A stretch of DNA of 64,000 nt from an uncultured Gemmatimonadales bacterium (GTDB taxonomy: Bacteria; Gemmatimonadota; Gemmatimonadetes; Longimicrobiales; Gaopeijiaceae): positions 960,001 to 1,024,000 of the forward strand of contig CAWELD010000003.1 in assembly GCA_963809895.1 (NCBI GenBank). The letters run 5' to 3'. A program made the position numbers. Positions 19,804 through 25,800 of this stretch are shown here, in pieces. Every line of letters begins with the position of its first letter. The first letter of the stretch is position 1.

Positions 19804-22800
19804 TGACCATGTTCGACCGCTTCACCCTCATCGCCGGGCCCTGCGTCCTGGAAGACGACGCCCTCAACCTCGAGGTGGGGCGTGAGCTCGTGCGCATGTC
19901 GGAAGCGCTCGAGCTTCCGGTGGTCTTCAAGGCGTCCTTCGACAAGGCCAACCGCTCCAAGTTGGACGCGCCTCGGGGGCCGGGGCTGCTGGAGGGCTTG
20001 CCGCTGCTGGACCGGGTGAAGGTGGAGACGGGCCTCCCGCTCCTCACCGACGTGCACGAGCCGGGGCAGTGCGGGCCCGCCGCCGAGGTCGTGGACGTGT
20101 TGCAGATTCCCGCGTTCCTGTGCCGTCAGACCGACCTGTTGGTGGCGGCGGGCGAGACGGGCCGGGCCGTCAACATCAAGAAAGGCCAGTGGATGGCGCC
20201 GGAAGAGATGACGGCGGCCGTGGACAAAGCCCGCCGGTCGGGAGCTCGCGAGGTGACGGTCACCGAGCGCGGCACCTTTTTCGGCTACGGGAACCTGGTG
20301 GTGGACATGCGCTCGTTCGCTCGCATCCGGGCGGCCGCGGGCGTGCCCGCCATCTTCGACGGCACCCACTCGGTGCAGCGTCCCGGGCGTGCCGACGGCG
20401 CCAGCGGGGGCGATCCCGAGCACATCCCGGCGCTGGTGCGCGCCGCGGTGGCGGCGGGGTGCGACGGCCTCTTCCTGGAGACCCACCCCGAGCCGTCGCG
20501 GGCCCCCTCGGACAGCACCAACATGCTGCCGCTGGCACGGCTGCCGGCGCTGCTGGCCGACGTGCTGGCCCTGCGCGAGGCGCTCGCCCGTGGCTGAGCA
20601 CTCCCGCAGGGCCGTGCCCGAAGCCGTGGTGGCGGCGTCGTCGACGCTGCCCGGCGAGATCGCCAGGCGGATCCGCCTGGTCATCTTCGACGTGGACGGC
20701 GTGCTCACCGACGCCGCCGTGTACCTGGGGCGCACGTCGGCCGGTGAGGCCGTGGAGCTCAAGCGCTTCGACATCCAGGACGGGCTGGGCATGAAGTTCC
20801 TGCTGGACGCCGGCATGCAGGTCGCCATGGTGTCGGGCCGCATGTCCGAAGCCACCACTCTGCGAGCCGAGGAACTGGGAATCGAGGAGTGCCATCAGGA
20901 CGCCGGGGCCGACAAGCTGCCCCTGGTGGAGGGCCTCCTCGAACGTCACGGCGTGACCTGGGCCGAGACCGCCATGCTCGCCGACGATCTCCCGGACCTG
21001 GCCGTCCTGAGCCGGGTGGGATTGCCCGCCGCGGTGGCCAACGCCCAGCCCGAGATCCGGGAGCGGGCCACCTGGGTGTCGCACCGTGCGGGCGGACACG
21101 GCGCGGCCCGGGAGTTCTGCCGCGCGCTGCTCACGGCCCGGGGCCAATGGGACCAGGTGTGCGCCGCGTACGTCGCCGCCAGGGGCGGCGATGCGGGAGG
21201 TGGCTCGTGAGCGCCCCGGCCCGTACCGATGCGGCTCCCACGGCGGCGGACATCCTCGCCGAAGGCCGGCGCGTGCTGGAGGTGGAGGCGCGTGCGTTGG
21301 CCGGGCTGCCGGCTCGGCTCGACGAGCAGTTCGTGGAGGCGTGCCGGCTGGTGGCGCGGGCCCCGGGACGGGTGATCGTGTCGGGCATCGGCAAGAGCGG
21401 CATCATCGCGCGCAAGATCGCCGCGACCCTCACCTCGACGGGCACTCCGGCCACCTTCCTGCACCCGGTGGAGGGGCTCCACGGCGACCTGGGCATCGTC
21501 AGCCGCGACGACGTGGCGGTCCTGCTGTCCAAGAGCGGCGAGACCGGCGAGCTGGCCGGCCTCATCGACTATCTGCTGCGCCTGGGCGTGCCCATCGTGG
21601 CCATGACCGGACGCACCGACTCGTCGCTGGCTCGCCATGCCGCCATGGTCCTGGACTGCTCGGTGGACGAGGAGGCATGTCCCATGGATCTGGCCCCGAC
21701 CTCGTCCACCACGGCCACGCTGGCGGTGGGTGACGCGCTGGCCGTGGTGGTCCTGGGTCTCAAGGGATTCCATCCCGACGACTTCGCCCGCCTCCATCCC
21801 GGGGGCGCCCTGGGGCGCAAGCTCACGGTGCGCGTTCGTGACGTCATGGTGGCCGATGGGTACCCCAGCGTGCCCCGCGACGCCGTCATGCGCGCCACCG
21901 TGGTCCCCATCGCCGAGATGCGGGGCACCGTGCCCGTCGTGGACGTGGAGCGGCATGTAGTGGGGGTGGTGACCGCCGGTGACCTCACGCGCCTCATGGA
22001 GCGCGACGAAACCGGTTGGCCCGAGACGCGCGTGGAGGACGTCATGAGCCGTACGCCCCGGACGGCGGCGGCGGACGAACGCGGGTCGGCGGTGGTGCAC
22101 CGCATGGAGGAGGCGGGCGTGATGGCCATGCCCGTGGTGGATTCCGAGGGTCGCCTGGAGGGGGTCGTCCACCTCCACGACCTCATGAGAGCGGGGGCCG
22201 TATGATGAAGGGAGGCAGGGGCTTGGTGCCGATGCTCATGGCGATCGCCATGGGGCTGGTCGCGTGTCAGGAGGAGCCGTCCACCACGGTGGCCGGCGAA
22301 GGCCTGCAGGAGCTCGCAGCCGACAACGTCGTGTACGGGCTGGAGGAGATCCTCACCCAGGACGGGGTGCGCAGCGGCATCGTACGCGCCGACTCGGCCT
22401 ACGTGTTCGGCGATTCGGCGCTGTCGCACCTCTACGAAGTGGACATGACGCTCTACAACGACCAGGGACGCGACCGGGCGCACCTGACCGCCGACCGCGG
22501 CGTGCTCCACCAGCGCAGTGAGCTCATGACCGCCGAGGGCAACGTGGTGCTCCGGGTCCTGGACCAGGGGGTCACGGTGGAGACCTCGCGGCTGCGTTAC
22601 GACCCCAGCTCCCAGATGATCAGCAGCGACACCGTGTCCACCTTCCGGAGAGACGGCAAGGTCCAGCACGGCACCTGCTTCCGCTCCGATCTGCAGTTCA
22701 CCTCCTACTCGGTGTGCCAGCCGGTGGGCGCCATCTTCGAGCCCGGCGAACAGGGCAACGGTGGCGGCGGAGCGCCCCGGTGAGACTCCTTCTGCTCGCG

Positions 22801-25800
22801 TCCCTGTCCCTGGTGGCGGCTGCGGCCGCCCTCGTCCTGGCACCGGCCGTGGTCCGGGCCCAGGGGGTGGGGTGCGAGTTCCTGCCGGGAACCAACAACG
22901 TCGAGGGGCGGGTCTCGGGCTCGTCGCGCATCACCTACGTGTCCCGGCCCCGCATCCGGTGCTCCGACGGCCGCTACATCGAGGCGGACAGCGCGGTGTC
23001 CTTCGAGTCGTCGGGCTACACCGAGCTCACGGGCCGCGTCTACTTCCAGGACCCGGACAAGAGCCTCCGGGCCCAGGAGGCCCGCTACTACGACAACCTG
23101 GGCCGCGTCGAAGCCACGGGCTCGGTCGTGCTCACGGACCGCCAGACGGGCAACGTGCTGCGGGGTGAGCGGCTCCTGTACCTGCGCCAGTCCCGCGCGC
23201 GCTCCCAGGAGGAGCTCACCATGACGGGGGGGCGCCCGGAGGCGACCCTCTATCCCGAGCCCGACTCCACGGCCGCTCCCGACGACGAGGTGGTGCCCTA
23301 CGAGGTGGTGGCGGACCGCATCTACCTCCTGGGAGACCGGCGCTTCCAGGCCAACGGCAACGTCGAGGTCGAGCGGGACTCCCTGACCGCCTCCGGCCAG
23401 ACCATGGACTACGACCGCGAGGCCGGCACCATCGACTTCACCGGCGGCTCCCGGGTCAAGCAGGGCGAGATGGACCTCACCGGCCGCGAGATCCACATGG
23501 TCCTTCCCCAGAACCGCATCCGCGAGGTGACCGCGCGGGAGGAGTCCCGGCTCATGGGGCAGGACGTGGACCTCGAGGCCCACACCATCCGGCTCTTCCT
23601 CACCGACGGCGAGCTCGACCGCGTGGTGGCCGTGGGCGCCAGCCGCGTGCTCGGGGGCGCCCAGGGTGATTCGACCCAAAGCGCCATGGCGCCGCCCGCC
23701 GCCCCCACGACCCAGCCCACGCCGCCCGACTCGATCGCAGCGGATTCCACGCGTGCGCCGCGCCAGGCCGTGGCCACGGCGGAGACGCTGGTGGCCACCG
23801 CAGACTCCCTGGACATCGTGGCTCCGGGCCAGACGCTGGAGCGCCTGGTGGCCATCGGGACGGCGCGGGCCGTCTCCAACGCCCGGGACAGCCTCAACAC
23901 CCCGGACATGCCCGACTTCATCCGCAAGGACTGGATCAGCGGCGACACCGTCATCGCGGTCCTCCACCCCGACACCTCGGCCCAGGCTCGGGCGCGGCCG
24001 GATTCGGCCCGTCGGCCCTACGTGCTGGAGCGCCTGGTGGCGAGCCTCAACGCCCGCAGCTTCTACCGCTTGGACCCTGATTCCACCGAGGGCGCACCTC
24101 CGCGTCCGGACACGGCCCGGGCACCGGAGCCGATGGCCCGGCCGGACAGCATCGCCGCTCCTCCGGACAGCCTGCAGGTGGCGCCGGACAGCGTCCCCAC
24201 AGGGCCGCGACGCCCCAGGCTGCCCATCAACTACGTGGAAGCCGACCGCATCGTCATCGAGTTCAAGGACGGTGCGGTGGACCGCATGGATCTCACCGGT
24301 CTAAGGCGTGGCATCTATCTGACGCCGGGGAGCGGCTCGCGTACCTCCCGTGTCGGAGGCGAGCCGTGAGCGACGACCTGACTTCTCCCTGGACTCCCTA
24401 CGAGGACGACGTGGACACCACCGCCGACGACCCGATCCCCGAGACGCGCCCCGTGGACGCGCCTGCGGGCACCGAGCCGAACACGGTGGGGGCGCACGTG
24501 CCCGTGTCCGTGGCGCCTCCCTCTCACGGCAGCCGTTTCTGGGCCGAAGGGCTCACCAAGGTCTACCGCCGGCGCAAGGTCGTGAACGACGTGGCGATCT
24601 CGGTGGAGCAGGGAGAGATCGTGGGCTTGCTCGGGCCCAACGGGGCGGGGAAGACGACCACCTTCTACATGATGGTGGGGTTGATCCCGCCGGATGCCGG
24701 GACGGTCTACCTCGACGACGAGGACCTCACGGGCGTGCCCATGTACAAGCGCGCACGCATGGGCGTGGGGTACCTGGCCCAGGAGCCGTCCATCTTCCGC
24801 AAGCTCACGGTCGAGGAGAACGTCCGGGCCATCCTCGAGACCATGGACATGCGCAAGGCCGAGCGGAAGCAGCGGCTGGAGGAGCTGCTCGACGAGCTCT
24901 CCATGGCGCATCTCCGGGACAACAAGGCCTACTCGCTGTCCGGCGGAGAGCGCCGGCGGCTCGAGATCACCCGCGCCCTGGTGCAGCGCCCCAAGTTCAT
25001 GCTCCTGGACGAGCCCTTCGCCGGCATCGATCCCATCGCCGTCAACGACATCCAGGAGATCGTGGCCGAGCTGAAGACCCGGGGAATCGGCGTCATCATC
25101 ACGGACCACAACGTGGAGCAGACGCTGGAAATCGTGGACCGTGCCTACATCATGTACGAGGGACGCATTCGCGTGACGGGCACCGTCTCGGAGCTCGTCT
25201 GGAACGATGAGGTTGCGGAGATCTATCTGGGACCCACGCTGACGCATCGGATGAGGGCGCGCTTCGCCCGCCCCGTGTCCAGCCCGACGCCCGAGCGCCG
25301 GACGGAGTCATGAATCAGTTCAACACGCGGCTCTTCCAGAGCCAGCAGCTCAAGCAGGAGATGCGGATCAACCCACGCCTGTACCAGGCGATGGAGTTGC
25401 TCTACATGCCGCTGCTGGACCTGCAGCAGCATCTGAAGCAGGAAATGGCCGAGAACCCCTTCCTGGAGATGTCCGAGGCCGACGTGCAGCAGGAGGTCGA
25501 GCTCAAGGAGGAGGCCCCGGACGACGGTACCACCGAAGACGAGATCGACTGGGAGGAGATCCTCCTGGACGGCTTCGACGCCGGCGGCCGCAAGCAGGAA
25601 TACGAACACCGCGAGTACATCCCCCCGACGGCGGTGGACAAGCCGGACCTCCACGACCACCTGGCCGAGCAGCTCCGCATGCTCGACCTGGACGAGCGGG
25701 CCATGCGCCTGGGTGAGGAGATCCTGGGCAACCTGGACGACACGGGCATCCTCACCTGCTCGCTCGAAGAGGTGGTGGAGGGCGCCAACGATTGGCTGAA

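Follow-up and report, generated by a model that had tools for sequence, protein, structure and literature searches.

A probable three-unit, single-chain LptA encoded between lptC and lptB in an uncultured Gemmatimonadota bacterium

Between lptC and lptB, in the slot that holds the short LptA of Escherichia coli (YhbN) and its counterpart LptH of Pseudomonas aeruginosa, an uncultured Gemmatimonadales bacterium has a gene (g00876) for a single chain about three times as long. In E. coli, LptA oligomerizes, consistent with the 2r19 and 2r1a entries, and the length of the periplasmic bridge is thought to be attained through stacked LptA monomers. The locus raises the question of whether g00876 is the LptA of this organism and whether its length takes the place of such a stack. 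The window (i.e., the whole stretch of DNA analyzed) comprises 64,000 nt of the forward strand of contig CAWELD010000003.1 (positions 960,001 to 1,024,000; assembly GCA_963809895.1), and all coordinates in Table 1 refer to it.

The g00876 reading frame is open throughout, with no internal stops; its GTG start codon shares bases with the lptC stop codon (GTGA), and a GGAG sits 7 nt 5' of it. The N terminus has, by inspection, the features of a Sec signal peptide, with VRA/QG at its end (family cleavage-site consensus, A-x-A-Q), and a Sec signal is also found in E. coli LptA and P. aeruginosa LptH. The five upstream genes match, in order, CTP_transf_3, CTP_synth_N plus GATase, DAHP_synth_1, Hydrolase_3, and SIS plus CBS; the interval given for them marks the outer limits of the listed open reading frames (ORFs), the true starts lying further in. 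The listed lptC ORF extends from 22016 to 22783; judged by eye, translation probably starts at 22202, where the MMK codon and the kdsD stop codon overlap. The lptB start is uncertain, as the LptB profile match begins at ORF residue 59, and the last 4 nt of lptB overlap rpoN. These Pfam and NCBIfam matches reproduce the gene order kdsB-pyrG-kdsA-kdsC-kdsD-lptC-g00876-lptB-rpoN described in an earlier note, and the ORF and neighboring profiles agree with its description of a secreted 529-aa protein between lptC and lptB. The LptC encoded here is a predicted lipoprotein, with an N-terminal lipoprotein signal and an L-V-A-C lipobox (by eye); a Cys follows the LptC hydrophobic segment in all nine relative loci with a visible N terminus.

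Table 1. Features of the lpt locus and predicted parts of the g00876 protein
Feature	Coordinates	Strand	Basis or description
kdsB, pyrG, kdsA, kdsC, kdsD (in this order)	16814..22205	+	Pfam matches
lptC	22202..22783	+	TIGR04409, 73.9 bits (cut-off, 38); PF06835, 53.2 bits
Probable long lptA (g00876)	22780..24369	+	529 aa plus stop; ORF, profiles, structure model, hhalign
Signal peptide, residues 1-27	22780..22860	+	By inspection only; cleavage probably after VRA
Unit 1, residues 29-159	22864..23256	+	Modeled LptA-type beta-jellyroll with Cys32/Cys61; LptH 4uu4_A, Z 14.1
Unit 2, residues 174-292	23299..23655	+	Modeled LptA-type beta-jellyroll; LptD_N and NCBIfam LptA matches; 2r19_A, Z 15.0
Pro-rich disordered linker, residues 293-329	23656..23766	+	pLDDT 51-63
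Unit 3, residues 330-515	23767..24324	+	Modeled third LptA-type beta-jellyroll; residues 499-517, predicted LptD-docking edge
Disordered Pro-rich loop within unit 3, residues 436-482	24085..24225	+	pLDDT 46-59
lptB	24366..25313	+	TIGR04406, 360 bits (cut-off, 240)
rpoN (sigma-54)	25310..26818	+	Sigma54_DBD, Sigma54_CBD, and Sigma54_AID domains

Pfam LptD_N (PF03968) recognized g00876 above its cut-off (30.9 bits, cut-off of 20.4, residues 188 to 240). The NCBIfam LptC model (28.9 bits, residues 67 to 152), the NCBIfam LptA model TIGR03002 (28.8 bits; cut-off, 71.7; residues 193 to 245), and OstA_2 (PF13100; 12.7 bits; cut-off, 21.2) all scored below theirs; the LptD_N score and the weak LptC and LptA matches are those already reported in the earlier note. 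A six-frame search of the genome with PF03968 returned two matches, both within g00876 and totaling 34 bits, again as reported. TIGR03002 matched solely inside g00876 (21.6 bits), and the g00876 family profile (A1) matched only g00876 and the adjoining lptC (E = 1.7e-6). No second LptA-like ORF was found with these three queries in the genome, which is 95.16% complete, in keeping with the earlier claim that a short LptA is lacking elsewhere. Other components of the LPS pathway were detected, including LpxC (307 bits), LptF (272 bits), LptG (228 bits), and, elsewhere on the contig, a 984-aa LptD of the Bacteroidota type (LptD_2; 113 to 114 bits), homologs of which carry the source name "putative LPS assembly protein LptD."

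Relatives of g00876 comprised 705 clusters at an E value of ≤1e-3, confirming the large set seen earlier, for which the count had been 706. Among 66 aligned family members, 48 matched LptD_N, 14 matched OstA_2, and 4 matched LptC; the JGI name "lipopolysaccharide export system protein LptA" is attached to 12 of 91 homologs. A match to g00876 was present in 146 of 151 sampled Gemmatimonadota genomes, representing 79 of 83 genera (144 of 149 genomes when the unpublished G097 and G057 are left out), and the g00876 query found none in the other 5. Every one of the 10 published relative loci inspected keeps the order lptC-long gene-lptB; an eleventh locus (L018, from G097) contains the long gene and lptB, with no lptC within its flank. 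The relatives range from 450 to 800 aa in length, which is due to disordered inserts, not to additional units.

The low scores against curated LptA models, which set g00876 apart from E. coli LptA, may be taken as a weak point against its identity as LptA. They would fit an OstA-like periplasmic protein whose role lies outside LPS transport, the true LptA being too divergent for detection, and contig C10 carries a third LptF/LptG-like ORF, a hint of a second Lpt-like system. We consider this very improbable, given the constant position of the gene between lptC and lptB in the published loci, its conservation across the phylum, and the failure of three different queries to reveal another candidate; in addition, a homologous Bacteroidota protein copurifies and coassembles with LptD (PMC13692018; bioRxiv 10.64898/2026.10.03.756453). 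It is likely that g00876 is the LptA of this bacterium, a secreted periplasmic protein with three LptA-type beta-jellyroll ("beta-taco") units in one chain.

The three units were delineated in a structure model built from the 66 aligned sequences, which is all-beta (mean pLDDT, 84.8; pTM, 0.79). In VIA-align comparisons of the whole model, LptH 4uu4_A superposed on residues 29 to 159 (119 residues; rmsd, 1.7 A) and LptA 2r19_A on residues 91 to 259 (129 residues; rmsd, 3.0 A), bearing out the earlier assignment of an LptA-like fold to residues 29 to 159 and of a second unit reaching about residue 290. The LptD N-domain (7omm_A; Z 14.9) and LptC (6mjp_C; Z 12.5) also matched and belong to the same fold superfamily (PF03968 and PF06835); further points of likeness are the weak LptC match and the detection of the adjoining LptC by the family profile. 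Unlike these proteins, g00876 has no membrane anchor, lipobox, or barrel, and the genome has separate lptC and lptD genes. The C-terminal beta module, for which the earlier note had left the number of units open, is predicted to be one more LptA-like unit. Modeled by itself (pLDDT, 80.9; pTM, 0.71), it matched LptH (Z 11.8; rmsd, 2.6 A over 106 residues) and LptA (Z 10.8; rmsd, 2.4 A over 99 residues); Lpt proteins filled ranks 1 to 10, and the following row had a Z of 4.8. Each of the three modeled units has the jellyroll of E. coli LptA and P. aeruginosa LptH, and hhalign detected internal repeats between units 1 and 2 (probability, 85%) and between units 2 and 3 (94%). The case for continuity from unit 2 into unit 3 is indirect, drawing on the pTM of the whole model, homology, and elongated-sheet proteins aligned across the boundary (e.g., 6t4r at model residues 31 to 373; rmsd, 3.2 A over 207 residues). 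Invariant columns of the family include a Cys32/Cys61 pair in unit 1 and D342, S343, A362, and Y429 in unit 3. Copies of the Bacteroidota O-glycosylation motif, D-[ST]-[AILMTV], are densely arrayed in the Pro-rich segments, three in the linker (positions 297, 317, and 322) and four in the loop (positions 444, 456, 463, and 470).

Complex prediction with LptD residues 85 to 275 and unit 3 gave a score of 0.73, against 0.10 for the best control. Among solved complexes, 116 of 157 attained this mark, and among mismatched pairs, 2 of 215. Agreement between runs was at least 88% of contacts, with a partner pLDDT of at least 70. The predicted interface is edge to edge, pairing LptD residues 100 to 116 with the last strands of g00876 (residues 499 to 517), i.e., a head-to-tail contact via edge strands, as in E. 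coli LptA and P. aeruginosa LptH. The score may reflect resemblance to solved head-to-tail complexes of Lpt proteins and is to be read as likeness, not binding. PF03968 does not recognize the N-terminal domain of this LptD, and hhalign found no significant similarity between that domain and the g00876 family (probability, 0.4%).

Bridge length might still be set by more than the chain itself, with copies stacking head to tail as the oligomerization of E. coli LptA would suggest, or with unit 3 and the loops serving mainly as a tether or spacer (e.g., to peptidoglycan or accessory proteins) and not as a lipid groove. Unit 3 follows unit 2 after a low-confidence linker of 37 residues and is itself broken by a loop of 47 residues, as such a role would allow; in B. 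thetaiotaomicron, the LptA C terminus contacts LptP (bioRxiv 10.64898/2026.10.03.756453). We judge this improbable, since unit 3 is modeled as a complete LptA-like jellyroll with its own invariant columns, the predicted pairing with LptD falls on its last strands, and it aligns collinearly with the C-terminal region of the Bacteroidota beta-taco, in which the linker is absent.

This collinearity extends over the whole length of g00876. Aligned by hhalign with 30 Bacteroidota sequences of a roughly 530-aa OstA_2 protein, profile A1 matched over 372 columns (query 21 to 514 against 13 to 471; probability, 99.6%; E = 1.2e-24). The Bacteroidota long ORF is carried by 68 of 81 sampled genomes and is the sole PF03968 match in 4 of 4 genomes; a six-frame search with the Gemmatimonadota profile recovered it, weakly, in 3 of 5 (E = 5e-7 to 7e-5). 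Long LptA as a kind is already known: a preprint of October 2026 describes the Bacteroidota LptA, by cryo-electron microscopy, as assembled on LptD and continuous with it in a beta-taco of 56 ladder strands, where E. coli has 16 (bioRxiv 10.64898/2026.10.03.756453), and the long LptA proteins of Flavobacterium johnsoniae and B. thetaiotaomicron belong to OstA_2 (about 500 to 600 aa). We infer that the ORFs aligned here are the LptA of that preprint because each is the sole PF03968/PF13100 ORF in its genome and has roughly the length expected of a 56-strand beta-taco. Like them, g00876 is one secreted chain with several LptA equivalents, is the sole LptA-like gene found in its genome, is paired with an LptD_2-type barrel, and is spread through its phylum. 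The Bacteroidota reference, in contrast, has about 80 more jellyroll residues, located between units 1 and 2, and g00876 is therefore estimated, from aligned lengths, to have about 42 to 48 ladder strands. Moreover, g00876 has the two Pro-rich segments, which are absent from the reference, and the invariant Cys pair, and it falls below the OstA_2 cut-off.

In Bacteroidota, two preprints of October 2026 raise the prospect that the long bridge transports not only LPS but also surface lipoproteins, its length and added features then serving an expanded translocon. For g00876, this is rather unlikely, though less so than the alternatives above. Its full-length homology and the LptD_2 type of the LptD would be in line with it, as would the copurification of SusD and SusF with B. 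thetaiotaomicron LptA, named BT_3849 (PMC13692018), and the stated conservation of LptP in seven further FCB phyla and of LptT in six. The main text of the preprint, however, contains 0 occurrences of Gemmatimonadota, and the translocon genes are described as unlinked in Bacteroidota (bioRxiv 10.64898/2026.10.03.756453), in contrast to the classical lptC-lptA-lptB-rpoN operon found here.

The earlier note read g00876 as a single-chain LPS bridge. This reading is supported by the collinearity of g00876 with the Bacteroidota OstA_2 protein, the presumed LptA of the cryo-electron microscopy preprint, and also by the fold, the lptA slot, uniqueness, and the predicted LptD contact. On this reading, g00876 would bind and transport LPS, the groove would continue across the linker, and one copy would suffice, a single chain spanning the periplasm by itself. 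If the E. coli Lpt pathway and the Bacteroidota cryo-electron microscopy work are taken as guides, the N-terminal edge of unit 1 would extend the LptC jellyroll, LPS acyl chains would slide in a hydrophobic groove that runs from unit 1 through unit 2 to unit 3, and strands at the C-terminal edge of unit 3 would pair with those that open the LptD_2 periplasmic domain. Given this proposed path from LptC through units 1 to 3 to LptD_2, the bridge that E. coli builds from stacked short LptA monomers may here be encoded for the most part in a single polypeptide, equivalent to about three LptA proteins.

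The open reading frame (ORF) at 22780-24369 (+), around which the GC content is 63-76% (a GC-rich window), encodes a protein of 529 residues, here called long LptA. Its GTG start shares a GTGA with the stop of the upstream gene and is preceded by GGAG. Starting instead at an upstream GTG at 22714 (551 aa) would create a 70-nt overlap with lptC, and the 551-aa form is also disfavored by the alignments of homologs, which start at approximately residues 1-20 of the shorter form. Residues 1-27 read by eye as a Sec signal peptide, with a hydrophobic core followed by VRA/QG. Pfam and NCBIfam matches give the gene order prfC, kdsB, pyrG, kdsA, kdsC, kdsD, lptC, long lptA, lptB, and rpoN, in which the lptC and lptB neighbors match TIGR04409 (73.9 bits) and TIGR04406 (360 bits), respectively. 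These matches bear out the neighbor order given in the earlier note, and the ORF and its neighbors confirm the secreted 529-aa protein that it had placed in the lptA slot; i.e., the gene lies between lptC and lptB, and its product is secreted and soluble, as judged from the signal read by eye. The N terminus of LptC carries a lipoprotein-type signal ending G-L-V-A-C (also read by eye), and a Cys follows the LptC hydrophobic segment in all nine relative loci with a visible N terminus. Judged by its sequence, LptC appears to be a lipoprotein, unlike that of Escherichia coli, which is bitopic and has a transmembrane helix. The start of lptB is uncertain; if it is 24366, an acidic, Pro-rich extension of approximately 58 residues stands ahead of the ABC domain.

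Long LptA matches the Pfam family LptD_N (PF03968) with 30.9 bits, above the cut-off of 20.4, and 48 of the 66 aligned members of its family match at an E value of ≤1e-3. The short-LptA equivalog TIGR03002 scores 28.8 bits at residues 193-245, below its cut-off of 71.7, and the NCBIfam LptC model matches residues 67-152, likewise below cut-off. OstA_2 (PF13100), which is matched by 14 of the 66 family members, reaches 12.7 bits in a six-frame search, below the gathering score of 21.2, and is absent from the hmmscan results for long LptA at an E value of ≤0.01. By its TIGR03002 score, long LptA is outside the short-LptA equivalog, but its function appears to be that of a short LptA. In the genome (5.33 Mb in 11 contigs; 95.16% complete), neither PF03968 nor TIGR03002 (21.6 bits inside the ORF) has a match outside the long-lptA ORF, and a profile of the 66 family members (A1) matches this ORF, the adjacent lptC (E value, 1.7e-6), and nothing else.

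The AlphaFold2 model built from A1 is all-beta (mean pLDDT, 84.8; pTM, 0.79), with low confidence at residues 295-329 and 436-482. In a search of 48,161 PDB representatives, the whole model aligned with LptH 4uu4_A (Z, 14.1; rmsd, 1.7 Å over 119 residues; model residues 29-159), LptA 2r19_A (Z, 15.0; rmsd, 3.0 Å over 129 residues; model residues 91-259), LptD 7omm_A (Z, 14.9), and LptC 6mjp_C (Z, 12.5). Folded alone (pLDDT, 80.9; pTM, 0.71), residues 326-529 matched LptH (Z, 11.8; rmsd, 2.6 Å over 106 residues) and LptA (Z, 10.8; rmsd, 2.4 Å over 99 residues); Lpt proteins filled ranks 1 to 10 of this search, and the row after them had a Z of 4.8. The models therefore point to an Lpt-type beta-jellyroll fold, both for the whole protein and for its C-terminal unit. 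When slices of A1 were compared by hhalign, unit 2 matched both unit 1 (probability, 85%) and unit 3 (94%), and units 1 and 3, which did not match each other (2.5%), are connected via unit 2 only. Because of the matches of the separately folded C terminus and these slice comparisons, the chain is concluded to comprise three LptA-like units (residues 29-159, 174-292, and 330-515), separated or interrupted by loops (see the table below). This result supports the multi-module LptA proposed earlier; the C-terminal third, which had been left open, matches as a third LptA-like unit when folded by itself. From the aligned lengths, we estimate that long LptA has roughly 42-48 ladder strands, equivalent to about three E. 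coli LptA proteins. Continuity between units 2 and 3 is predicted on indirect grounds, namely the pTM, homology, and elongated-sheet proteins that align across the boundary, such as 6t4r (model residues 31-373; rmsd, 3.2 Å over 207 residues). Cys32 and Cys61, which lie at the start of unit 1, are conserved without exception in the 66 aligned members of the family; they may be joined by a disulfide at the edge that faces LptC.

Features of long LptA and of the flanking genes, with their positions in the window
Feature	Residues	Window positions	Character
Short loop	159-175	23254-23304	Disordered, Pro-rich
Linker between units 2 and 3	293-329	23656-23766	Disordered, Pro-rich
Loop within unit 3	436-482	24085-24225	Disordered, Pro-rich
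Cys32	32	22873-22875	
Cys61	61	22960-22962	
LptC N terminus		22202-22270	Lipoprotein-type signal, read by eye
Possible lptB extension		24366-24539	If lptB starts at 24366

A phmmer search against 1.84 billion representatives returned 705 clusters at an E value of ≤1e-3 and 284 at ≤1e-30, and the best 150 clusters were mostly 450-800 aa long. The homologs with names belong to Gemmatimonadetes, Longimicrobiales, or Gemmatimonadales, and 12 of 91 homologs carry the JGI name LptA. With long LptA as the query, a match was found in 146 of 151 sampled genomes of the phylum (79 of 83 genera), leaving five genomes without a match; without two unpublished genomes (G097 and G057), the count is 144 of 149. 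At 11 relative loci, lptB always follows the long gene and lptC precedes it in 10, the exception being L018 from the unpublished G097, so that the order lptC-long gene-lptB holds at all 10 published loci. Most of the length variation among the relatives comes from inserts between units 1 and 2, which are 40-170 residues long. Additional jellyroll units, which might have accounted for the longer relatives (up to approximately 800 aa), were rejected for the ten inserts examined; these are low-complexity sequences without extra units, since P, A, G, S, T, D, E, or Q makes up 68-86% of their residues.

LpxC is present in the genome, and lptF and lptG lie in tandem elsewhere on the same contig (C3:1908098-1910604). 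A third LptF/LptG-like ORF (75 and 63 bits in one 469-aa frame) is located away from this pair, on another contig (G000:C10:638237-638992). An outer-membrane protein of the genome (984 aa) matches LptD_2 (PF19838) with 113-114 bits, and the classical LptD barrel (PF04453) has no match in the genome; homologs of the 984-aa barrel are named "putative LPS assembly protein LptD" and come from Longimicrobiales or Gemmatimonadota. We predicted a complex of LptD residues 85-275 (56-row alignment) with unit 3 of long LptA (65-row alignment). The score was 0.73, against 0.10 for the best control. Of 157 solved complexes, 116 attained that mark, as did 2 of 215 mismatched pairs; the result may reflect likeness to the Lpt head-to-tail complexes that have already been solved. 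At least 88% of the contacts agreed between runs, and the partner pLDDT was at least 70. In the predicted interface, the first strands of LptD (residues 100-116) pair with the last strands of long LptA (residues 499-517), which is the same edge-strand pairing as in the canonical head-to-tail Lpt arrangement. The prediction supports a putative binding of unit 3 to LptD. No significant similarity between A1 and LptD of the genome was detected by hhalign (probability, 0.4%), so a jellyroll in the N-terminal domain of LptD is without sequence support. By analogy with known Lpt proteins, long LptA has a putative role in binding LPS and handing it on, which would be essential to LPS export. Another LptD_2-type barrel protein (P0237; 1153 aa, NCBI) matches columns 72-350 of the long-LptA profile with its N-terminal residues 129-389 (hhalign probability, 98.1%), so that LptD itself carries a roughly two-unit LptA-like stretch in this protein.

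Full-text literature searches yielded one report of a long LptA, a preprint on Bacteroidota posted on 5 October 2026 (bioRxiv 10.64898/2026.10.03.756453). This preprint describes cryo-electron microscopy of endogenous LptD complexes from Flavobacterium johnsoniae and Bacteroides thetaiotaomicron, in which LptA, assembled on LptD, forms a continuous beta-taco with 56 ladder strands. It also describes additional translocon subunits in Bacteroidota (LptP, LptT, and LptN), one of which, LptP, is stated to be conserved in seven other FCB phyla as well; its main text does not mention Gemmatimonadota. In B. thetaiotaomicron, LptA is BT_3849, which copurifies with LptB-G according to another preprint (PMC13692018). 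A protein search with A1 found just four proteins beyond the Gemmatimonadota set, none of them named Bacteroidota, and Bacteroidota genomes were therefore gathered by a 16S probe scan. PF13100 detected one long ORF per Bacteroidota genome, with frames of 528-855 aa in four genomes and of 147 aa in the fifth; the short frame (L153; G154:C1:3437486-3437851), from Chryseobacterium, may be due to a frameshift or an assembly error. The long ORF was the sole PF03968 match in four of four genomes, and the Gemmatimonadota profile found it in three of five (E values, 5e-7 to 7e-5). Relatives of one such protein (527 aa) were found in 68 of the 81 Bacteroidota genomes sampled, and 30 of their loci were used to build a Bacteroidota alignment. 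When compared with A1 by hhalign, this alignment gave a probability of 99.6% and an E value of 1.2e-24 over 372 columns (query 21-514 against 13-471), collinear across all three units. An Atlas feature search agreed, with a Bacteroidota "OstA family protein" cluster (504 aa; score, 0.92). These sequence comparisons show full-length, collinear homology of long LptA to the long protein of Bacteroidota, and we infer that the Bacteroidota ORFs compared here correspond to the LptA of the October 2026 preprint. The two forms differ in several respects. Between units 1 and 2, the Bacteroidota reference is longer by approximately 80 residues, and it is missing the loops at residues 293-329 and 436-482, whereas Cys32 and Cys61 of the Gemmatimonadota protein have no counterpart in the Bacteroidota consensus. 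The arrangement of three units with disordered inserts and the retention of the lptC-lptA-lptB-rpoN operon also set the Gemmatimonadota protein apart from Bacteroidota LptA.

The motif D-[ST]-[AILMTV] is the O-glycosylation motif of Bacteroidota (PMC8550257 and PMC12871550); the available part of the latter, a 2025 review, names only Fibrobacterota as similarly enriched to Bacteroidota and leaves Gemmatimonadota unmentioned. The three loops of long LptA (residues 159-175, 293-329, and 436-482; 101 residues in all) contain 8 copies of this motif, compared with 0.57 in shuffles that preserve the composition, of which none of 10,000 reached 8. Ten homolog inserts contain 5-15 motifs each, against approximately 1 expected, and LptD of the genome contains 13. 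Genome-wide, the 245 ORFs given a crude signal-peptide call have an observed/expected ratio of 1.16, versus 0.87 for the 4,382 others, and at least four motifs within 60 residues are found in ten ORFs versus one for the reversed motif. This genome-wide enrichment is modest, and no claim is made for a phylum-wide glycosylation system. We consider it rather unlikely, if conceivable, that the disordered loops of the LptA bridge and of its LptD are O-glycosylation arrays of the Bacteroidota type; in that case, the general, motif-driven O-glycosylation system that has so far been attributed to Bacteroidota would also be present in Gemmatimonadota, and the three-unit LptA would be decorated with glycans and might, like its Bacteroidota homolog, also carry surface lipoproteins. 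The variable length of the glycosylated inserts of the relatives between units 1 and 2 (40-170 residues) would in that case not be noise but a tunable envelope feature.

The number of LptA units in the periplasmic LPS bridge of E. coli is debated. In a natural single-chain LptA, the number of units is fixed in the gene, a point already made with structures in the Bacteroidota preprint. This kind of protein has thus been in print since October 2026 for a neighboring phylum, and the current understanding is not overturned. The Gemmatimonadota protein adds the long form in a second phylum and a partner LptC that is a predicted lipoprotein. Its classical lptC-lptA-lptB-rpoN operon links the long family to LptA through gene order, in addition to copurification, and its shorter, three-unit layout with disordered inserts is useful for comparing the length of the bridge with the width of the periplasm.
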